This document shows positions 3,397-39,460 of a stretch of 39,517 bases of DNA, piece by piece (position 1 is the stretch's first letter; each line of letters starts with the position of its first letter). Below the pieces are notes generated by a model, which saw only the letters and a list, made by a program, of their open reading frames with translations, had not been told where the DNA came from and made no database searches. The stretch is from an uncultured Candidatus Saccharibacteria bacterium (GTDB taxonomy: Bacteria > Patescibacteriota > Saccharimonadia > Saccharimonadales > EFPC-124), in contig CAYTEG010000001.1 in the NCBI GenBank assembly GCA_964436805.1, positions 1 to 39,517 on the forward strand, read 5' to 3'. Both the position numbers and the translations under genes were made by a program.

Positions 3397-4566
3397 TTAT
3401 TTTCCGGCTAATGCGATGTCGCCAATCATATTAACATGGGCGATTTCGAGCACGCGCATACACAAAGTTATGTACAAACCGTATTTTTTACGGAAGGCCG
3501 GTGGCAGGTCGGCGGTGTATTGGCGGGCGTGGGCAAAAAAGAGCGCCGGGATTTCGGTGGTGTATTTTTTTCGCGCACCTTCGCTGGTGTGGAAATCTTT
3601 AAAAGCCTGCTGCAGTTTTGCGACCTGCTGCTGGTCGCTCATGCCTGCCAAATCGCACAATTCGCCTACAAAACTGGGGTGGTAATGGTTAAACGGGTTG
3701 AGGCTAAAAACGCCCCAGGCCGGGTCGTTACCGGCATCGACCCACCAATCGCCTACTTCGTCGCCAATGCGCGCCACGGCGTTGCACATTTGCAAAAAAG
3801 CTTTCATGGTTGAGTCGCCGTGAACTTCGCTGAGCGGCGGCAAACTGTTGTCATTTTGACGATATATAGCATACAGCGGCGCGCTGACGCTTGGCAAACC
3901 GGCGTCGGCCACCAAAAACCGGGCGGCCTGCGCCGAATGTTCGCTTAAAAACGCCGGCTGTTTTTGTTTAGGCAAGGCTTTATAGGCGGCGCTTAAGCGG
4001 TGCATGCCGACTTCGTTGTATAACACTTGTTGGTCGTAGCAATCAAGCACAAACGGCGCGTCTTCGGGTAACGCCAAATCGTCGATGTGACGCTTAATAT
4101 CGCCGAGTGCCGCCAGCCGGCTCGCCACTCCCGCCGCCAGCTTTGCAGGGATTTTTGGCTGGTCGCCACATAACTTTTCGATCGCCAGCACCATTGCCTC
4201 GTCGCCGCGATCCATAGTTTGGTCGGCAAAATACATAGTGCCAATCGCCGACGCGGCCGATGCCAGGCGCTTGGTATTGGCGTCGCCCAACAGTTCGCCC
4301 GCAGCCAGCGCCGGGCAAAAACTAACGGCCTTAGGCGCTATTTCGCCCAAAATGCGTACGACGTCTTTTGGAGTGTATTCGGGGATTGCCTGTTGCACGC
4401 ATTGCTGCAAATCGGCATTGCAAATACCGGCGATCGCCGCAATTTGACCAGCGATATCGCCAAGCCGCGCCGTGGCGTCGGCACCAAACGAAACATCTTT
4501 GCCAAACACCGGGCCAGCATACGCAGCAGCAATAAGTTTTTGTAAGACTTGTGATTGTGTTGCCAT
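3397..4566 (-). CDS. hypothetical protein; possible divergent class I isoprenoid/terpene synthase-fold enzyme
   Basis: 389 aa, predicted all-helical. It has an Asp-rich segment D115-Q-T-M-D119-R-G-D-E and a second metal-site-like segment N262-A-V-A-R-I-G-D-E270, 147 residues apart. Arg216 lies exactly 46 residues upstream of N262, and R348-Q-Y350 lies about 85 residues downstream. This spacing resembles bacterial terpene synthases, but the motifs are degenerate. The coding call is solid; the function call is weak. Confidence 0.6.
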   Translation of the reverse strand: MATQSQVLQKLIAAAYAGPVFGKDVSFGADATARLGDIAGQIAAIAGICNADLQQCVQQAIPEYTPKDVVRILGEIAPKAVSFCPALAAGELLGDANTKRLASAASAIGTMYFADQTMDRGDEAMVLAIEKLCGDQPKIPAKLAAGVASRLAALGDIKRHIDDLALPEDAPFVLDCYDQQVLYNEVGMHRLSAAYKALPKQKQPAFLSEHSAQAARFLVADAGLPSVSAPLYAIYRQNDNSLPPLSEVHGDSTMKAFLQMCNAVARIGDEVGDWWVDAGNDPAWGVFSLNPFNHYHPSFVGELCDLAGMSDQQQVAKLQQAFKDFHTSEGARKKYTTEIPALFFAHARQYTADLPPAFRKKYGLYITLCMRVLEIAHVNMIGDIALAGK

Positions 4567-6517: not shown

Positions 6518-7720
6518 ATGTATCCCGAACAAAACAAACCATTGCTGCCTATTAAAAAGATCATCCTCATCGGTGGAGGGTTTTTGTTTGTGGTGATTGC
6601 AGTCATTGTGTTCTTTTTGGTAAATAAGCCGGCGCCGACCGAGCCAGAGCAAGGTGGGGAGCCCCAAACCACGAGCCCACGTTCTGACTCGCCAAAAAAA
6701 GATGAGCCCGCACCACCAGCTGCTACGCCCGAAGACACAAGCAAAAAGTCTGCCGCCGGGAGCACAGGCAGCAGCGGTTCTGGCAGCACGGGTAGCAGCT
6801 CGGGCGGCACTTCTGGCAGCAGCGGCGGGAGTGACAGCGGTGGCGGCGGTGGTGGCACCACTCCAAACCCCTGCGACCCAGGCACCCACGTTGCCGGCGG
6901 CAGCGACGACACCGGCGGCTGCTGGCCAGGCCCCAACAACACTGGCGTGCCGTCGATGATTACCCTGAGCACCTACGCCGGCCCCTGCGTTATCACCGCC
7001 GACAACACCACCATCGACAGTAAAACCGTCAACTGCGACCTCGAGGTGCACGCCGCCAACTTTACGCTCAAAAACAGCAAAGTTAATGGCCTTGTTTTTC
7101 TCGACACCGACCTTGGCGGGTCGGGCAGTTGGTCGATGACCGTCATCGACTCAGAAGTCGACGCTGGCACCCAGCAACGCGCCGCGATTTCGGTTGGCAA
7201 CATGACCGTGCTCCGCGCCAACCTGCACGGTGGCCAAACAGGGGCGCAGTGCGAAGAAACCGGCTCGTTCTGTAGCATCACCGACTCCTGGCTGCACGGC
7301 CAATACCTACCCGACGACCAGCCATGGCACCTCGGCGGCTTCTTAAGCGACGGTGGCGTCAACATGACATTACGCCACAACACCATCGTGTGCGACCACG
7401 CCGTTAACTCGGTAAACGAAGGTTGTACCGGCGACGTTAACCTTATACCAAACTTCGCCCCCATATCTGGCGCACTCATCGAGCACAACCTGCTTGGCGC
7501 CAATGTTGGCTCGTCGTACTGCACATACGGCGGTGAAAAGTTTAGCTCGCCCACGCCACACTCCGACCACGTGGTATATAAAGACAACATTTTCCAGCGC
7601 GGCACAAACAACCAGTGCGCCGCCTTTGGGCCGGTCACCAACTTCGACATCAACCAGCCGGGCAACCAGTGGGTCAACAACCGCTGGGCAGACGGCGGCA
7701 TTGTCGACCCCGCCAACTAA
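6518..7720 (+). CDS. membrane-anchored secreted protein with Ser/Gly-rich linker and Cys-containing beta-helix-like C-terminal domain
   Basis: The start is set at ATG 6518 (MYPEQNKPLL) because the ORF-track start at 6464 overlaps the previous gene. It has an N-terminal TM segment IILIGGGFLFVVIAVIVFFLV and a low-complexity tract GSTGSSGSGSTGSSSGGTSGSSGGSDSGGGGGG. Repetitive N/T/D-rich segments follow (NTTIDSKTVNCDL, NFTLKNSKVNG, NMTVLRANLHGG, NMTLRHNTIVCD), which suggest a parallel beta-helix. Confidence 0.7.
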   Translation: MYPEQNKPLLPIKKIILIGGGFLFVVIAVIVFFLVNKPAPTEPEQGGEPQTTSPRSDSPKKDEPAPPAATPEDTSKKSAAGSTGSSGSGSTGSSSGGTSGSSGGSDSGGGGGGTTPNPCDPGTHVAGGSDDTGGCWPGPNNTGVPSMITLSTYAGPCVITADNTTIDSKTVNCDLEVHAANFTLKNSKVNGLVFLDTDLGGSGSWSMTVIDSEVDAGTQQRAAISVGNMTVLRANLHGGQTGAQCEETGSFCSITDSWLHGQYLPDDQPWHLGGFLSDGGVNMTLRHNTIVCDHAVNSVNEGCTGDVNLIPNFAPISGALIEHNLLGANVGSSYCTYGGEKFSSPTPHSDHVVYKDNIFQRGTNNQCAAFGPVTNFDINQPGNQWVNNRWADGGIVDPAN

Positions 7721-7785: not shown

Positions 7786-8385
7786 GTGGAGATCTGCATC
7801 GACCCGATGAGATTCCTCGTGACTACCGCTGGTGGAGTGGGTGGCACTTTCGCCCTCAACACCCCGCACCGGCTCGATGACTCGCACCGTTTCGTTGTCA
7901 CACACGACAACCGCAAGGGCGCGCTCATCAAGCTCAAGCACGACCCCAAGGTCGTCCAGCGCGGCTTGGTGCCGTTCCTGAGCGCCACCGCCGGACGCAA
8001 CGAAAACGGCGTGCCGCGCATTCAGCCGTGCGTCGTCGACCTCGACCCCAGCCGGCCGATCTTCCCGCTGGCGCCCGTCGTCGACGCACTGCTGGCGGCC
8101 GGGACCAGTTGGGGAGAAATCAGCCCCATGGCTGCCGAGAGCGAGCTGACCGACCACGCCCCCACCGACTCGATGCCGATGATGCACAGCAATGGCACCA
8201 TCGAGTGCGACGAGATCGGGAGCACCACCCGCTTCGTGGTCAGCGACGCCACCTGGGCTGTCACCAGCCAGGACGGCTGCACGACCCACGTTTACCTGTG
8301 GCCCGGCGCCGAAGCGCACACCGCCGAGATCGTGGCCACCGTCGGCCGCATCAACTCGGGCACACTCGCCTCCATCGAGGCCTAA
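7786..8385 (+). CDS. hypothetical protein (high-GC cassette 1)
   Basis: 199 aa with a GTG start preceded by AAGGAG. One sampled 60 nt line (8041-8100) is 77% GC, all Lys codons are AAG, and third codon positions are strongly G/C-biased in this frame. I recognise no domain. Confidence 0.7.
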   Translation: MEICIDPMRFLVTTAGGVGGTFALNTPHRLDDSHRFVVTHDNRKGALIKLKHDPKVVQRGLVPFLSATAGRNENGVPRIQPCVVDLDPSRPIFPLAPVVDALLAAGTSWGEISPMAAESELTDHAPTDSMPMMHSNGTIECDEIGSTTRFVVSDATWAVTSQDGCTTHVYLWPGAEAHTAEIVATVGRINSGTLASIEA

Positions 8386-8516: not shown

Positions 8517-8590
8517 GGCTGGCGAGGAAGGGGTCGAACCTTCGATCTCCGCATCCAGAGTGCGGCGCCTTACCACTTGGCCACTCGCCA
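8516..8590 (-). tRNA. tRNA-Gln (anticodon CUG)
   Basis: The 75 nt reverse complement folds as a cloverleaf. Acceptor stem TGGCGAG/CTCGCCA (U1-A72), discriminator G73 and an encoded CCA. D-arm GCCAAGTGGTAAGGC. Anticodon stem CCGCA/TGCGG with loop CTCTGGA. T-arm GAAGG-TTCGACC-CCTTC. It closely resembles E. coli tRNA-Gln. Confidence 0.9.
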
Positions 8591-15544: not shown

Positions 15545-15982
15545 TTATATGTCGAGATCGTCTAAATCTGCAAGCTCTTTTCGGGTTCGAGTTGCGACAG
15601 ATTCTGATTCTTCCACAGGCTTATCTGTTGTTTTTTCCACAGGTTCGTCAACCGGAGCGGCAGCAACGGGTTTGGCAGTGTCGTCAGCAGCGTCATCGCT
15701 GGCTGTGCTGTCGTCGGCTGGTGCGCCGCCGGGGCGGTCGACATCGACGATTTTTAAGTTGTAACGGGCGTCGTTTTTAGTGCCCAGGGCGCGCAGCAAG
15801 GTGCGCACACTTTGGGCAGTTGCGCCGCGTTTGCCGATTACCCGGCCTAAATCTTCGGGGTCGACAGTAAGTTCGAGTAGTACGCCCTTTTCGTCGATGC
15901 GGCGTTCGATGGTCACGGCCTCTGGTTTACTGACGAGCGATTTTATAATGAATTCCACAAACTGCTGGTCGATGCTTGTCAT
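15545..15982 (-). CDS. KH-domain RNA-binding protein (YlqC/UPF0109-like) with acidic C-terminal tail
   Basis: 145 aa. The first 80 aa or so carry the KH GxxG loop (GRVIGKRGATAQSVRTLL). About 65 aa of Asp/Ala/Pro/Glu-rich low complexity follow. Confidence 0.82.
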   Translation of the reverse strand: MTSIDQQFVEFIIKSLVSKPEAVTIERRIDEKGVLLELTVDPEDLGRVIGKRGATAQSVRTLLRALGTKNDARYNLKIVDVDRPGGAPADDSTASDDAADDTAKPVAAAPVDEPVEKTTDKPVEESESVATRTRKELADLDDLDI

Positions 15983-16063
15983 GGACAGGCTCCCATTATT
16001 TACTGTACTAACGTATTGTAGCGCACTGCCTAGGCGCAGCGCAAACTGCTTGCGGCAAAATAC

Positions 16064-16092
16064 TTGCTTTTTTTATATTTTTATGTTAATAT
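16064..16092 (+). promoter_or_regulatory. sigma70-like promoter of alpha-CTD-like gene 1
   Basis: TTGCTT (16064-16069), a 17 nt AT-rich spacer, then TAATAT (16087-16092). Confidence 0.45.
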
Positions 16093-16170
16093 ACTTTTCA
16101 TAAGCTTTGCTCAACCCTGTCAAACAGAGTGGGCGAGCTCGCCCGCTTTACACAAGAAGGGATCGTCCGT

Positions 16171-16677
16171 ATGCGGAAGATCACCCCGACCACCAAGGCC
16201 AAGGCGAAGGCCAAGCTCAAGGCGCGCAACCAGCGTACCGCCCAGGCGAAGGCCGCGGCGCGCGGCGCGAAGTTCCGCCACTACAAGGGCGCGCAGCCGT
16301 CGACGATCGGCAGCAAGGCCAAGCCCGAGAGGGCCGAAGCCGAGGCTGTCCTGCCGACGCTGCCGACCCCCAAGCCGCCGCGCCCGCAGACCCCCGACTT
16401 CGCCGCCGCGACCACCGCGACGGAGCTGGCCCTCATCAAGGCCCGCGCCGCCAACGCCCTCGCCGAAGACCTGGCGCTGCCGATCGAGGAGCTCGACCTG
16501 TCCATCGGCGCCTACAACGAGGCCAAGCGGGCCGGCGTCAACATCGTCGGCGACCTGGTGACGCGCACGAAGCGGTACTTCACCGGCTTCAAGCGCATGA
16601 GCCAGCGCGCCGCCGACGACATCCAGGCTAAGCTCCTGGGCATGGGGCTCGACTTCCAGCCGCCCAAGGCTGCCTGA
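16171..16677 (+). CDS. basic protein with RpoA alpha-CTD-like helix-hairpin-helix domain (high-GC cassette 2a)
   Basis: 168 aa from ATG 16171 (GAAGGGA upstream; the ORF-track start is 16129). A Lys/Ala-rich N-terminus (KAKAKAKLKARNQ) is followed by a Pro-rich linker. The C-terminus PIEELDLSIGAYNEAKRAGVNIVGDLV...AADDIQAKLLGMGL parallels the RNAP alpha C-terminal domain (IEELDLSVRSYNCLKRAGI..V.EL...SL.EIK.KL..LGL). About 75% GC in a sampled line; all Lys codons are AAG. Confidence 0.7.
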   Translation: MRKITPTTKAKAKAKLKARNQRTAQAKAAARGAKFRHYKGAQPSTIGSKAKPERAEAEAVLPTLPTPKPPRPQTPDFAAATTATELALIKARAANALAEDLALPIEELDLSIGAYNEAKRAGVNIVGDLVTRTKRYFTGFKRMSQRAADDIQAKLLGMGLDFQPPKAA

Positions 16678-16697
16678 GTCGCATGTGTAAAGTGGGT

Positions 16698-16780
16698 ACC
16701 GGCTGCAGTTCGCATACTGCAGCCGGTCATCCATGAACTTATTTATAAAATACCCCACCAGGTTTTGGTGGGGTATTTTT
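16698..16780 (+). terminator. 12 bp perfect hairpin followed by an intrinsic terminator
   Basis: ACCGGCTGCAGT/ACTGCAGCCGGT (16698-16727). Then AAAATACCCCACCA / TGGTGGGGTATTTTT (16747-16780). Confidence 0.55.
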
Positions 16781-16793
16781 GTAGCGCGCCAGA

Positions 16794-16822
16794 TTGCTTA
16801 AAATTAGTTTTGATGATATCGT
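16794..16822 (+). promoter_or_regulatory. sigma70-like promoter of alpha-CTD-like gene 2
   Basis: TTGCTT (16794-16799), a 17 nt spacer, then TATCGT (16817-16822). The -35 hexamer is the same as for gene 1. Confidence 0.4.
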
Positions 16823-16864
16823 ATTACTGCAACAAACCACCCTCGACGCACAGTGAGGTACGGT

Positions 16865-17344
16865 ATGAAACAGCGTAAAAAGCCAAAGGAGCCCACTGCG
16901 CGGCACATGCGCAAGAAGGGCAACCAGACTGGCGGAGCGCCAGCGACAACCCAGGTTGTTTACATCATGGGCGGCACTGGCGCCGTGCAGCGTACGATCG
17001 CTGCCGCAGAGGCGCCGAAGAAAGGCAAAAAGGTCACGGCGAAGATCCCGCAGAAGCCGGTTGAGACACCGGTGGCCGAGCCGGCACCCGCCGCCGAGGT
17101 GCCCATCGCCGAAATGAGCTTGGCCGACAAGCTGGCGCAGCCGATCTCTGTGCTAGACCTCGACCTCCGGGTCTACAACAAGTTGGCGTTCCGCGGCTAT
17201 CAGACCATCGGCATGCTCACCGAGCGAGCAGCCGGCGATCTGTACGTGCGGCACACGTTCAGCGAGAGGTCGATCGCCGAGGTTCGCGCCAAGCTCGCCG
17301 CCATCGGCTTGACCCTCAAGGGCGAAACGCTGCCGGAAGCATGA
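16865..17344 (+). CDS. basic protein with RpoA alpha-CTD-like helix-hairpin-helix domain (high-GC cassette 2b, paralog of 2a)
   Basis: 159 aa from ATG 16865 (GAGG upstream). A basic N-terminus (KQRKKPKEPTARHMRKKG) and a Pro/Ala-rich linker. The C-terminus is PISVLDLDLRVYNKLAFRGYQTIGMLT...SIAEVRAKLAAIGLTL. Confidence 0.7.
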   Translation: MKQRKKPKEPTARHMRKKGNQTGGAPATTQVVYIMGGTGAVQRTIAAAEAPKKGKKVTAKIPQKPVETPVAEPAPAAEVPIAEMSLADKLAQPISVLDLDLRVYNKLAFRGYQTIGMLTERAAGDLYVRHTFSERSIAEVRAKLAAIGLTLKGETLPEA

Positions 17345-17354
17345 CTGCCCGGCC

Positions 17355-17388
17355 GGGTACTGGTTGCACCACGACGCAACCAGTACCC
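17355..17388 (+). terminator. 13 bp perfect GC-rich hairpin after cassette 2b
   Basis: GGGTACTGGTTGC (17355-17367), a loop, then GCAACCAGTACCC (17376-17388). Confidence 0.45.
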
Positions 17389-17410
17389 GCCCCTTAAAAA
17401 ATAGCATCCA

Positions 17411-17452
17411 AAAAAAATACCCCGCTCACTTTTTGCGAGCGGGGTATTTTTT
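17411..17452. terminator. bidirectional intrinsic terminator shared by cassette 2b (+) and rpsP (-)
   Basis: A7-ATACCCCGCTC, a loop, then GAGCGGGGTAT-T6. Confidence 0.55.
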
Positions 17453-17846
17453 ATTCTTCGGTTTTTTCTTCGGTGGCTTCTGGAGCCGCTTCTTCGGCCG
17501 GAGCTTCAGCCTCTACCGGCTTGGCTTCTTCTTTTGGCTGGTCTTTACGCAGCTTTTCGGCGTGGCGGATTTTGCCTTCGTTTTTGTCGGCCTTTTTTAC
17601 CCAGGCTGGCAGCGCGACTTTGTCGGCCTCGAGCAAGCGCACCACGCGAGGTGATGGCTGCGCGCCATTTTTAAGGTAAAATTCGATCTTTTCTTTGTCG
17701 AGTTTAGCCTCTTTGGTGTGCGGGTTGTAGGCGCCAACATAGGCGACCACACGGCCGCTGCTGGGGTGGCGTTGCGATTCTTGTACGGCGACACGGTATA
17801 CCGGCATTGCCTTGCGGCCGAGACGTTGCAAACGAATTGCGAGCAT
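17451..17846 (-). CDS. rpsP: 30S ribosomal protein S16 with Lys/Glu/Ala-rich C-terminal extension
   Basis: MLAIRLQRLGRKAMPVYRVAV...NPHTKEAKLDKEKIEFYLKNGAQPS is canonical bS16. 131 aa, with about 45 extra C-terminal residues. Confidence 0.92.
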   Translation of the reverse strand: MLAIRLQRLGRKAMPVYRVAVQESQRHPSSGRVVAYVGAYNPHTKEAKLDKEKIEFYLKNGAQPSPRVVRLLEADKVALPAWVKKADKNEGKIRHAEKLRKDQPKEEAKPVEAEAPAEEAAPEATEEKTEE

Positions 17847-17887
17847 GTAGTAATAATCCTCTTAATCTTATAAGTAAACTGCTACAC

Positions 17888-17916
17888 ATTTTACAGGGAA
17901 TAACCCCAGTTGTCAA
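17888..17916 (-). promoter_or_regulatory. consensus sigma70-type promoter of rpsP
   Basis: The minus strand reads TTGACA (17916-17911), a 17 nt spacer, then TAAAAT (17893-17888). A GGTGCGC/GCGCACC hairpin precedes it and closes the upstream high-GC ORF. Confidence 0.5.
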
Positions 17917-17946
17917 ATGAGGGGGAGGTGCGCCGGGGAGCGCACC

Positions 17947-18444
17947 TCACCACCTTCCATAGAACCGGCACAACCTGTTGCGGACGACAGCGGGTACATA
18001 TACGATCACGTTGCCAATCCGCCGGCCATCCGCAACGGTGTGGCCGCGCGGGTTTAGGGCTACCTGCGCTGGTACGCGCCGGCCGGTGACTGGATCCCAC
18101 ACCAGTAACCGGCCGTTGCCTGCCTCGGGCACAACTTCGTACATGAGGCGCACAAACGCCCATTCGGCCAGCTTTTCGCTGCCGCGCGGAAAGGGCCGCA
18201 GCACCCGGTACCCGTGCCTGCCAACCCGCCGCCCGGGCATATGCGTAACCACCGCAATTGCCTCGTTGCTCAGGCCAACTAAAAGGTCGTAGTCGGGCGT
18301 TACCGTTATTGGTGATGCGTCGTCCAAAAAGCCTTTGCCCACCTGGTATGGGTGGCGCATATATGCCTTAACGCACCACTCATCGTCGTCGGGGTACTGC
18401 GAAAGTGCCTCGACTAACTCCTGAGTTGTCCGCAGGAGTGCCAT
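17947..18444 (-). CDS. hypothetical protein (high-GC cassette 3)
   Basis: 165 aa with GGAG 7 nt upstream of the ATG. GC-rich with G/C-ending codons; Arg/Pro/Gly/Val-rich; no domain recognised. A possible promoter GTGACA-17-TATACT overlaps the rnc stop. Confidence 0.6.
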   Translation of the reverse strand: MALLRTTQELVEALSQYPDDDEWCVKAYMRHPYQVGKGFLDDASPITVTPDYDLLVGLSNEAIAVVTHMPGRRVGRHGYRVLRPFPRGSEKLAEWAFVRLMYEVVPEAGNGRLLVWDPVTGRRVPAQVALNPRGHTVADGRRIGNVIVYVPAVVRNRLCRFYGRW

Positions 18445-18486
18445 GATTGCTCCGTTCTATAGGCGCACAAAAAGTATAAGCGAAGG

Positions 18487-20336: not shown

Positions 20337-20513
20337 ATAAAGGAAACCTCCTTATGGTTTATCTGTAATAACTTGACGTTAATTATAAAGCAAACATGCT
20401 TTTTGGGCAAGGATATGTTGCTAAATTGTGTATTTTATGGCAATATATGTCTAATACGTCCGTCGCAATTTGGTGGCCGTAAACCGCACATCCACACCCG
20501 AGGGGGAACCTGC

Positions 20514-21086
20514 ATGACAAGCCTCACCGCCCTGCCGGCAACAGGCAAGCAGACAACGCCGCCGGAGCTCCTGGAGCGTTCGCTCTGGGAGCGCGCCATC
20601 AACGGTGAACGCGCCCTGCGCGCCATCCGTGAGGATCCGCACTGGAAGGGCAGCACGGCCACCCTGGCCGAACGGCAGACCGCCGCCTGGGGTGCCCTGG
20701 CGCGGCTCTTCGCCGCGACCGACACCGGCCAGAACGACGCGGCCATCGTCGGCGCCTGCGACCCGCTGCTGCTGTTCAACCTCGGCAGGTCGGCCGACTG
20801 GCAGCGCTTCACCGACCTGCAGCGGCTCATCGGCATGATCGTCGACGTGCTGCAGCCCGTGCCCTACGCCGACAACCCCGAGCACGTCTGGGGGCCGTTC
20901 CTGGCGCTCATCGAGGCCGTGCGCAGCGATGACGAGGAGGCCACCCGGCTGCACCTCGACACGCTGGCCGCACTGCCGCCGAGCGGCCCGGCCGAGATGC
21001 CGAACCGGCGCTGGTGGGCTCAGCGGGTGGCGAACTACATCACCCTGGTCAACGACCACGGCCTGCCGATGGGCACCCGCGTCTGA
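20514..21086 (+). CDS. hypothetical protein (high-GC cassette 4)
   Basis: 190 aa from ATG 20514 (GAGGGGGA upstream). The ORF-track 5' extension to 20373 is AT-rich and looks like a promoter region (TTGCTA-17-CAATAT near 20419-20447). Ala/Leu/Arg/Trp-rich and predicted helical; no domain recognised. Confidence 0.6.
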   Translation: MTSLTALPATGKQTTPPELLERSLWERAINGERALRAIREDPHWKGSTATLAERQTAAWGALARLFAATDTGQNDAAIVGACDPLLLFNLGRSADWQRFTDLQRLIGMIVDVLQPVPYADNPEHVWGPFLALIEAVRSDDEEATRLHLDTLAALPPSGPAEMPNRRWWAQRVANYITLVNDHGLPMGTRV

Positions 21087-25364: not shown

Positions 25365-26306
25365 ATGGTGAAAACCACCCGGTTTTTATTGGCGGCCAGC
25401 GTGGCTGCAGTGGCGACCTTGGGGTTGGCCACGCCCGCTCACGCCGACAAGCCAGTTACCGCGACGGCTGCAGTTTCGTGCCCCGGCGACCAGTTGATGG
25501 TTGGCGGGAAGTTCACGCTGACAAAGGTGCTTGCCACGCAGCAAATTGCGGTGCACACGCTGGCCTCAGACCTGCCGCTGGCAAGCCAGAGCAGCTACGT
25601 GGGCGACACCGCTACCTACGACGTGGCGTTCGACGCGGCGCTCAAAGCGGCCAGCCCAGCGACGGCCAGCGTGCCTAACAGCTGGAACGGCAGCTTTACG
25701 CTCACCACGCCGACCTGCAAGGCGCCGGTGGTGGCAACGACCAGCGCCACAACCTCGGCGTGCGGCGCTTCGCCCAGCCTGACACTGCAAGTGACCAACC
25801 ACAACCCGGTCATGGTGGACTACACGGCGATACTCACAACGCCCGGCACCAACCTGGTAAACAAAACTGCCACCGTACGGGCCGGCCAAACGGGCAACCT
25901 GGTATTCGCGGTCGTACGGGGCAAGGAATACCGCCTGAGCCTCGAGGGTGACGACAGCACCTCGCTACTGACCACGACGAAGATACCGCTGTGTGTGGTT
26001 TCGCCACCGGCCAGCAAGTCGCCCAAGGCAAAGCCGTCGTCGGCAGCGCCTAGCCCGGTGCCAACGCCGGCTGTCGCAACGCCTGAGCCGAGCGAGAACG
26101 TGCTCACCGAACCGGTGCCCACTTACGTCGAGATGAACTACGAGCGCAAAGCGGCGTGGATTCCGTGGGCGCTGATCATTGGCGCGACGCTGGTGGTGAT
26201 CGGCGGCGCGATATTTGTGCTGGCGATGCGCCGTCGCACAGACGAAGATGATGACGAAGACGACGATGACCCACCGCCCGTTACCGGCCGCCACCGCCAC
26301 CGCTGA
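25365..26306 (+). CDS. secreted, C-terminally membrane-anchored surface protein (high-GC cassette 5)
   Basis: 313 aa. Signal peptide MVKTTRFLLAASVAAVATLGLATPAHA|DKP. A Thr/Ser/Ala-rich ectodomain with paired Cys, a Pro/Ser/Ala-rich stalk (PPASKSPKAKPSSAAPSPVPTPAVATPEPS), and a TM helix WIPWALIIGATLVVIGGAIFVLA. The cytoplasmic tail is RRRTDEDDDEDDDDPPP. No LPXTG motif. Confidence 0.7.
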   Translation: MVKTTRFLLAASVAAVATLGLATPAHADKPVTATAAVSCPGDQLMVGGKFTLTKVLATQQIAVHTLASDLPLASQSSYVGDTATYDVAFDAALKAASPATASVPNSWNGSFTLTTPTCKAPVVATTSATTSACGASPSLTLQVTNHNPVMVDYTAILTTPGTNLVNKTATVRAGQTGNLVFAVVRGKEYRLSLEGDDSTSLLTTTKIPLCVVSPPASKSPKAKPSSAAPSPVPTPAVATPEPSENVLTEPVPTYVEMNYERKAAWIPWALIIGATLVVIGGAIFVLAMRRRTDEDDDEDDDDPPPVTGRHRHR

Positions 26307-38911: not shown

Positions 38912-39460
38912 ATGACCGACTCCATCCCCACCGCCAAAGCGTTCGCGCAGTTGCTCGAACGCGCCCAGCGGGGACGCAAGCGCACCGCCCGCGAGATCAC
39001 GGGCGACGCCGCGAGCAGCGCAGCCGACATCGTCGGCACCGGCGAGCAGTACACCAACCGCTACGCCGTGCCGGACGACTGCAGCGTGTTCCCGCGGCAC
39101 CACACCACGGCCGCCAGCCGGATCGACGTGTACGCGCATGACGACGGAACCCTGGTGGTGTACGCGGCGCTCACCTGGCAGACCGAGACGGCGACGCACC
39201 GGATCGCGACGCGCTACCGCATCACGGCCGAAGGCGACGGCGTCGTTGCCATCGTGACGACGCTGGCGGACGACATCACGCCGTTCAAGCCGGGCGAGAT
39301 CGACACTGACGCCGCGACGGCGTACCAGGCCAAGGTGAGCAACTGGCTGGCCGAAAACGCGGCCAACTCCATCACCCTCGGCGCGGTGCGGGGAACGCTC
39401 GACCAGCAGAGCCTGGCCGACTTCGCCATGATGATCACCACGACCCCGTCCGACCTGTAG
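38912..39460 (+). CDS. hypothetical protein (high-GC cassette 6)
   Basis: 182 aa with GGGAGA upstream of the ATG. GC-rich with G/C-ending codons; no domain recognised. Confidence 0.6.
   Translation: MTDSIPTAKAFAQLLERAQRGRKRTAREITGDAASSAADIVGTGEQYTNRYAVPDDCSVFPRHHTTAASRIDVYAHDDGTLVVYAALTWQTETATHRIATRYRITAEGDGVVAIVTTLADDITPFKPGEIDTDAATAYQAKVSNWLAENAANSITLGAVRGTLDQQSLADFAMMITTTPSDL

Follow-up and report, generated by a model that had tools for sequence, protein, structure and literature searches.

The alpha C-terminal domain (alpha-CTD) of RNA polymerase, in which R265 is the key minor-groove contact, is not restricted to the alpha subunit RpoA: alpha-CTDs outside RpoA are already common in the databases, where they are found under the name 'DNA-directed RNA polymerase subunit alpha C-terminal domain-containing protein'. 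In a representative search, 3759 matches were obtained, and many of the best 150 displayed non-RpoA architectures. Hundreds of uncharacterised proteins were observed to harbor 2-10 tandem alpha-CTD repeats, with lengths of up to ~1400 amino acids (aa) (P0004-P0016 and others; L and P numbers mark loci and proteins of our collection), and some of them are fused to sigma-70 region 4 or SRPBCC-type (COXG) domains. In this study, two genes with an alpha-CTD outside RpoA, aCTD1 and aCTD2, were investigated in a stretch of 39,517 nucleotides (nt) from an uncultured Candidatus Saccharibacteria bacterium (contig CAYTEG010000001.1), hereafter called the window, in which they lie antisense to the flanking genes khpA and rpsP. 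Novelty does not lie in the domain call but in the combination of a Saccharibacteria-specific family in one genomic slot, an actinobacterial-like domain, N-terminal basic tails, a loss of R265 that is systematic in one line of paralogs, and a persistently extreme G+C content at third codon positions (GC3). Literature searches on alpha-CTD-only proteins and Saccharibacteria yielded no paper on these proteins.

Saccharibacteria possess very small genomes with few recognisable regulators and depend on actinobacterial hosts; they are epibionts of Actinobacteria, their known host phylum, and the cultured ones are obligate. Against this background, a family of proteins that carries a domain of the transcription machinery together with basic tails deserves attention, and its identity, distribution, origin and possible roles are considered below.

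Identity and DNA-contact surface of aCTD1 and aCTD2

Both proteins are free-standing alpha-CTD proteins, as an earlier note, made from the letters of this stretch alone, had suggested. The Pfam model RNA_pol_A_CTD (PF03118) was matched by aCTD1 with 41.3 bits (E 1.3e-10, residues 97-155) and by aCTD2 with 28.5 bits (E 1.3e-6, residues 87-145), both above its gathering cut-off of 23.8 bits. AlphaFold2, run on small alignments, gave a model confidence (pLDDT) of >90 across both C-terminal domains, with 92-97 in the alpha-CTD of aCTD1, and the top Foldseek matches of the models in the PDB were alpha-CTDs, namely 1z3e_B of B. subtilis (template modelling (TM) score 0.90) and 8hvr_K of S. coelicolor (0.88/0.89), superposed at a root-mean-square deviation of 1.0-1.5 Å. 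The identity of the window domains to 8hvr_K was 44-45%, and the compact helical fold with two helix-hairpin-helix motifs seen in the models matches that of solved alpha-CTDs. The NCBIfam RpoA models were matched by both proteins over their last ~70 residues only, the RpoA N-terminal domains (PF01193, PF01000) were not found in either of them in the Pfam scan, and the best RpoA equivalog scores (TIGR02027, NF0035xx), 47.2 and 40.9 bits, fall below the respective cut-offs (228-523), so that neither qualifies as a whole RpoA. Additionally, the layout of basic N-terminus, linker and C-terminal domain that had been described for both genes is borne out by the open reading frames (ORFs) and the AlphaFold2 models. 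Both N-termini are basic, and the N-terminal parts of aCTD1 and aCTD2 are unrelated to each other.

The plus-strand frames are the real ones, and it is the plus frame that carries the Pfam domain; GC3 in this frame is 0.96 for aCTD1 and 0.80 for aCTD2. Coding on the opposite strand was considered and rejected: a 212 aa minus-strand ORF (16120-16758) is a by-product, stop-free because its first codon positions face sense third positions that are 96% G/C (NNS). The start of aCTD2 at 16865 is backed by a GAGG ribosome-binding site and by the ortholog in L002, and the public version of this protein (P0003, 145 aa) begins 14 residues downstream of it. Neither gene belongs to the S13-S11-S4-rpoA-L17 (rpsM-rpsK-rpsD-rpoA-rplQ) operon, as judged by comparison with the true rpoA loci L067-L070.

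The residue states of the DNA-contact surface were compared in E. coli numbering, the E. coli alpha-CTD sequence having been checked against PDB chains. The window domains have the same length as E. coli residues 255-312, without gaps. Each of the 14 aligned RpoAs retains R265, N268, C269, K271, N294, G296, K298 and S299. At positions 265, 268, 269, 296, 298 and 299, aCTD1 displays G, N, E, S, R and A, and aCTD2 displays R, N, K, S, R and S; aCTD2 thus has part of the '265 determinant', which aCTD1 has lost, and neither protein retains all six residues. The acidic PIEELDL ('261') patch is kept in both window domains. Across the family, R265 and N268, and mostly G296, K/R298 and S299, are kept in aCTD2, L002_a2, L062_a2, L063, L064_a, L006, P0065 and P0129, a group made up of the rpsP-proximal or single-copy basic-tail type, of which aCTD2 is the rpsP-proximal gene of the window. 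R265 is lost in the khpA-proximal type, comprising window aCTD1, L002_a1, L062_a1 and L064_x171, and it is also lost in the single-copy L004 protein and in P0058. Since R265 is the key contact, kept in aCTD2 and lost in aCTD1, canonical DNA binding is plausible for aCTD2 and unlikely for aCTD1, and a role in UP-element binding is, on these residue states, plausible for aCTD2 at most.

Distribution, divergence and origin of the family

The close relatives of the window ribosomal protein S16 all belong to Saccharibacteria/Saccharimonadales, with a best identity of 74-78%. For the spacing survey, 52 species representatives with rpsP and khpA on the same strand were used. The rpsP-khpA spacing was ~300 base pairs (bp) or less in 42 of these 52 Saccharibacteria loci (median 121 bp) and >700 bp in the other 10, so that the earlier description of an antisense insertion between two normally adjacent genes holds. 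Only L004 and L006, the closest relatives among the 52 representatives, carry an antisense high-GC alpha-CTD gene in this spacer, and the other enlarged spacers hold unrelated small genes (L005, L010, L015, L022, L038, L045, L046, L052). A search of the GTDB species representatives with aCTD1 patterns found nothing. Further carriers were obtained through an exhaustive homolog profile search and a DNA-motif scan of metagenomes: two aCTD genes are found between khpA and rpsP in L002 and in L064, three in L062 (a 1.13 Mb contig), and one each in L063, L072 and L078, and the protein of L004 is single-copy (its homolog P0153 is named by NCBI as an alpha C-terminal domain-containing protein). L074 has no gene in the slot. 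Every basic-tail member whose context was inspected lies antisense between khpA and rpsP (L002, L004, L006, L062-L064, L072, L075, L078), and intact ORFs with ribosome-binding sites were detected in at least 10 independent assemblies. The S16 proteins of L002, L004 and L006 are 62-92% identical to that of the window. An assembly chimera with actinobacterial reads was rejected, as the same arrangement recurs in NCBI, JGI, ENA and Logan assemblies, including the 1.13 Mb contig. The aCTD array is an old, conserved but dynamic feature of one soil/rhizosphere clade of Saccharibacteria and not a private insertion.

Members of other shapes were also observed at the slot. L075 holds a 153 aa ORF (4105-4566, +) with two alpha-CTD repeats and no basic tail (Pfam 94.5 bits, two stretches). 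The third alpha-CTD gene of L062 (6721-7149, +; 142 aa, GC3 0.87, Pfam 19.4 bits) has been called publicly on the wrong strand (6673-7083, -), an error typical for NNS-coded genes. A second architecture joins an N-terminal domain of ~90 aa (motif ...RPYV..., no Pfam match) to an often degenerate alpha-CTD, and is represented by L062 5425-5886, L064 873-1388, L073 6293-6769, L071 70-534 (-), P0030 and P0058. It is khpA-proximal in L062, L064, L073 and L071; L071 and L073 show this type at the khpA-rpsP arrangement, and P0030 sits at a contig end beside RimK-type genes.

The two window genes are tandem paralogs, as had been proposed, each with an alpha-CTD and 32% identical in protein sequence over 71 residues. 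Because of this low identity they are old paralogs and not the product of a recent cassette duplication. The earlier view that a whole cassette had been duplicated, which would imply a recent event, did not survive: a DNA repeat search between the two genes found a single exact match of 10-11 nt, in the terminator arms (AAAATACCCC / GGGGTATTTTT), and otherwise short (11-17 nt) imperfect matches only, and the relatives hold 0, 1, 2 or 3 genes with different N-terminal parts. Between the window and L002, protein identity and the ratio of non-synonymous to synonymous substitution rates (dN/dS) are 56% and 0.80 for aCTD1, 54% and 0.36 for aCTD2, and 92% and 0.15 for S16. Within aCTD1, the N-terminal helix is 72% identical between these two genomes and the CTD ~65%, the linker is barely alignable, and a segment RYFTGF(K/C)RMS is conserved. 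The N-terminal motifs of the family are MRKIT..., or MSQVRIES...HPKFPA.

The alpha-CTDs of the family are closer to actinobacterial RpoA CTDs than to those of the other phyla compared, by models, PDB ranking and identities alike. The best PDB sequence matches were S. coelicolor RpoA (51.9 bits for aCTD1, 40.1 for aCTD2), followed by Mycobacterium and, behind it, Bacillus and Clostridioides. Of the eight NCBIfam RpoA equivalogs compared, NF003514 ranked first throughout the members tested; where divergence is lowest its lead is large, at 92.5 against 66.9, 84.9 against 62.8 and 91.8 against 72.4 bits (margin 19-26). In calibration, NF003514 gave 638-639 bits on actinobacterial RpoAs, and a Firmicutes-like RpoA preferred NF003515. 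The CTDs of the least diverged members are 66-79% identical to an actinobacterial RpoA, which is often more than members share with one another, a star-like pattern, and some members share 77-79% DNA identity with the 3' end of a Streptomyces rpoA over ~200 nt. Among the best 120 matches of the family profile, many are RpoAs named as actinobacterial and none is named as Saccharibacterial. No Saccharibacterial rpoA was found in the window or in any fetched locus, and RpoAs of 310 aa on contigs of 0.7-0.85 Mb were rejected as candidates for it, as their context and sequence look actinobacterial-like. Given the actinobacterial affinity and the known epibiosis of Saccharibacteria on Actinobacteria, we infer that the alpha-CTD was probably captured from an rpoA of the host phylum. 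A plasmid donor of a CTD-only gene was also considered and set aside, as the matches on Streptomyces plasmids are full-length rpoA paralogs. A phage origin was rejected likewise: the aCTD genes had no match in PHROGs, and the matches in phage databases were weak (34-51% identity), of CTD length and from unannotated records, which may be read as rpoA-like sequence.

In every genome, the basic-tail genes have a GC3 of 0.72-0.98, against 0.41-0.67 in their neighbours, and it is equally high in the tail-coding and the CTD-coding parts. A GC3 near 0.9 in genomes of ~52% GC may stem from selection acting at silent positions or from high-GC DNA imported repeatedly, and the persistence of such values in islet genes poses a general puzzle.

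Transcription signals and possible roles

The features of the slot are collected in Table 1. The divergent khpA/aCTD promoter region is conserved across the aligned genomes, which favours khpA and the inserted genes being transcribed independently. Six of the seven genomes aligned keep the -10 element of khpA, and none of the seven departs from the motif GCAAACTGCT(T/C)G(C/T)G at 16041-16054, which overlaps the -35 region of khpA, lies immediately ahead of the aCTD promoter and may be an operator or UP-like site. This motif was seen in the window, L002, L004, L006, L062-L064 and L071-L075, of which L074 carries it without any aCTD gene. At the aCTD1 promoter-like site, which scored below the threshold of the consensus scan, TTGCT and the TTATGTTAATATAC box are kept in L002, L062 and L063. 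The common -35 hexamer of the two genes is present as had been described, and each gene has its own promoter-like and terminator signals, with hairpins and A/T-flanked terminators located. Both terminators take the form AAAATACCCC.../...GGGGTATTTT with T runs, i.e. the intrinsic type. The 3' regions fold well beyond shuffled controls (z -7.6 and -10.0), and the fold of the aCTD1 leader is not significant (z -1.6). The GC-rich hairpins behind the stop codons recur in relatives, L063 and L064 carrying identical arms of 15 nt. A known RNA in the spacers was looked for, and the Rfam scan gave nothing above threshold. The coding region of aCTD1 is flanked by a 13 nt inverted repeat (16142-16154 / 16684-16696, 12/13 complementary), but ~0.6 such pairs are estimated to occur by chance in 1.5 kb, so that it probably carries no meaning.

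Table 1. Genes, predicted protein parts and transcription signals of the khpA-rpsP slot (window positions)
Feature	Coordinates	Strand	Description
khpA	15545-15982	-	145 aa KH-domain protein, left slot border; Pfam KH_KhpA-B 76.7 bits
khpA own promoter	16015-16054	-	-10 TACAAT 16020-16015, -35 TTGCGC 16044-16039, motif GCAAACTGCT(T/C)G(C/T)G; read from sequence
aCTD1 promoter-like site	16064-16092	+	TTGCTT (16064-16069), 17 nt spacer, TAATAT; read from sequence
Palindrome GGGCGAGCTCGCCC in aCTD1 5' leader	16131-16144	+	partly kept in L002
aCTD1	16171-16677	+	168 aa, khpA-proximal; ATG 16171, TGA 16677
aCTD1 parts (residues)			6-34 confident basic helix; 35-77 disordered, Pro/Ala linker; 78-101 helix; 105-157 alpha-CTD; AlphaFold2 model
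GC-rich hairpin right after aCTD1	16698-16727	+	12 bp perfect, no U tract
Terminator hairpin	16747-16779	both directions	14 bp, A/T-flanked
aCTD2 promoter-like site	16794-16822	+	TTGCTT (16794-16799), 17 nt spacer, TATCGT; weak -10; inferred
aCTD2	16865-17344	+	159 aa; ATG 16865, TGA 17344
aCTD2 parts (residues)			1-80 disordered, basic, Pro/Ala-rich; alpha-CTD 86-146; AlphaFold2 model
GC-rich hairpin right after aCTD2	17351-17392	+	17 nt, 94%; 13 bp perfect core; no U tract
Terminator hairpin between convergent aCTD2 and rpsP, common to both	17412-17452	bidirectional	16 bp perfect, A/T-flanked
rpsP	17451-17846	-	131 aa ribosomal protein S16, right slot border; Pfam Ribosomal_S16 53.6 bits

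Elsewhere in the window, in a genome with a backbone GC3 of ~0.6, five orphan genes have the same codon signature as the alpha-CTD genes, their GC3 being 0.70-0.94: 7786-8385 (+), 17947-18444 (-), 20373-21086 (+), 25365-26306 (+) and 38912-39460 (+). Four of the five had no Pfam match at E <= 0.01, and the gene at 38912-39460 had only a sub-threshold match to Zona_CL1 (15.7 bits, cut-off 26 bits). One of these orphans adjoins a tRNA (8519-8590), and one has a signal-peptide-like N-terminus with weak matches to sortase-signal models. The rnc-rpsP spacer (window 17847-18486) is a second variable slot, measuring 750-4500 bp in 19 of 50 species representatives (loci L003-L056); in the window it holds the 165 aa orphan at 17947-18444, which is 56% identical in L002. 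At the left window end, genes for a T2SSF platform and a T2SSE ATPase of type IV pilus/type II secretion system (T2SS) type were observed (195-2943, -), and they fit the pilus-dependent lifestyle of Saccharibacteria.

The earlier note had put forward nucleoid proteins and decoys as possible roles. Our tentative preference is that the proteins serve the Saccharibacterium internally, as small factors associated with transcription or DNA, which we hold to be quite possible though somewhat short of probable. Their alpha-CTD would most likely have been taken from the 3' end of an actinobacterial rpoA, and the captured genes would have been fixed as independently transcribed units in the rpsP-khpA spacer, there to be duplicated, diverged, fused and lost. 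With R265, N268, K/R298 and S299 and a disordered basic tail, the aCTD2 type is predicted to bind AT-rich, UP-element-like DNA and to compete with or replace the polymerase's own alpha-CTD at promoters. The aCTD1 type probably binds nucleic acid through its conserved basic N-terminal helix, and may use the alpha-CTD fold as a protein-docking module by way of the conserved RYFTGF(K/C)RMS surface. Several observations weigh against this account. C269 is kept in no family member of the alignment, and G296 is absent from both window copies, with S in its place, as it also is in L002_a1; because G296 and C269 are absent, canonical UP-element binding may be weakened even in aCTD2. The dN/dS of aCTD1 is near neutral. 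No members have diverged further than the window copies, which share 44-47% identity with actinobacterial CTDs, and duplication of the organism's own rpoA CTD is formally a possible alternative origin. Moreover, a single old transfer does not account for a GC3 that shows no decay toward the genome value.

One alternative is a role outside the cell. As host-directed mimics, the proteins would be delivered into the actinobacterial host, e.g. via a type IV secretion/pilus apparatus, and would there titrate alpha-CTD-dependent activators or occupy UP elements, re-programming host transcription. Such mimicry is suggested by the specifically actinobacterial likeness of the domain, by fast evolution with varied N-termini, fused domains and 0-3 gene copies, a pattern typical of host-interaction genes, by the full DNA-contact set and acidic IEELDL patch that, on this argument, the least diverged members keep, and by the general knowledge that cultured Saccharibacteria are obligate epibionts of Actinobacteria. 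We nevertheless consider it unlikely. Drift has taken the window copies a long way from the host domain, and they have lost invariant residues, the opposite of a faithful mimic; inspection of the sequences, with no predictor run, revealed no hydrophobic N-terminal signal peptide; the pilus genes of the window lie 13 kb off with no evident link to the aCTD genes; and protein delivery is not known from Saccharibacteria. A little more doubtful still is a version in which the genes, built from the host's own alpha-CTD, stay host-like in both sequence and codon usage through repeated uptake of host DNA and recombination with it, and disturb alpha-CTD-dependent activation in the host. If true, it would account for the unameliorated GC3, and Patescibacteria would have in this family their first 'domain mimic' effectors with a bacterial host.

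The near-neutral dN/dS of aCTD1, together with the lost invariant RpoA residues, could also mean that the genes are decaying or neutral remnants, i.e. accidental fragments of actinobacterial rpoA in a permissive intergenic slot and with no function of their own; that this slot holds unrelated small genes in other lineages and none in L074, and that other high-GC3 orphans are scattered through the window, would agree with it. This is improbable in our view, given that at least 10 independent assemblies across deep divergence hold the ORFs intact and with ribosome-binding sites, and given conserved promoters and 3' hairpins, the dN/dS of 0.36 in aCTD2, conserved segments within aCTD1, and a fold predicted with pLDDT >90. 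Least credible of all, and very improbable, is that these are spare or replacement polymerase parts, serving as alternative alpha-CTD modules or compensating for a truncated RpoA in a split alpha subunit. In its favour, both the acidic '261' patch and the fold of the alpha-CTD persist, and rpoA is split elsewhere, P0229 being a separate 80 aa CTD ORF behind an N-terminal domain (NTD) ORF in a Firmicutes-like operon. However, the genes are absent from this locus in ~50 other Saccharibacterial species and in L074, stand apart from the S13-S11-S4-rpoA-L17 operon, have no alpha-NTD or linker for tethering to the polymerase, miss C269, which is invariant in RpoA, and evolve far faster than core subunits. 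In L080-L082, the 80 aa alpha-CTD ORF follows a 221 aa NTD ORF in a Firmicutes-like S13-S11-S4-rpoA-L17 operon (L080 and L082 4001-4243, L081 1846-2088; 69 blocks of the collection); either a genuine split of rpoA or a frameshift that recurs could underlie it.

Whether the proteins serve within the Saccharibacterium or in its host, this family is a concrete candidate for self-regulation through a trans-acting alpha-CTD or for manipulation of host transcription, and both ideas are testable in culturable, genetically tractable epibiont-host pairs. It also shows spacers of housekeeping genes (rpsP-khpA, rnc-rpsP) as landing sites for new genes in reduced genomes.

Comparison with described systems

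The closest described relative is the CTD of actinobacterial RpoA (PF03118, NF003514; PDB 7vpd, 8hvr, 5uh5), with which the window domains share the fold, the length, PIEELDL and N268, and aCTD2 also R265. Unlike RpoA, the family has no alpha N-terminal domain or polymerase tether, lies outside the rpoA operon, has gained an N-terminal basic helix or tail, evolves fast and never keeps C269; aCTD1 has lost R265 and G296, and aCTD2 has lost G296. Extra actinobacterial rpoA on mobile DNA is found on Streptomyces plasmids, where more than 20 records contain matching alpha-CTD-coding sequence, most of it annotated as RpoA. The CTDs of these paralogs are 60-70% identical to P0038, but the paralogs are full-length proteins of 338 aa, as in the two records that were opened (L076 3233-4249, NZ_CP108493.1; L077 680-1696, NZ_CP109579.1), whereas the family is CTD-only.

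The N-terminus of aCTD1, TKAKAKAKLKARNQRTAQAKAAARGAK, is alike in composition to the Lys/Ala-rich, histone-H1-like tails of HupB/MDP1 and similar nucleoid proteins of Actinobacteria, and by this likeness it would presumably bind nucleic acid non-specifically. As differences, the aCTD1 tail is N-terminal and predicted to be helical, and its partner is an alpha-CTD and not the HU fold. The 'eukaryotic-like effector' paradigm of Legionella, in which an intracellular pathogen deploys mimics of host domains, likewise concerns a dependent organism with fast-evolving, multi-copy proteins that carry host-like domains; the host here is a bacterium, and the likeness is one of logic only. Compared with the uncharacterised alpha-CTD proteins of one to ten repeats, finally, this family is set apart by its occurrence in one Saccharibacterial clade and one slot, by N-terminal motifs of its own and by host-like codon usage.

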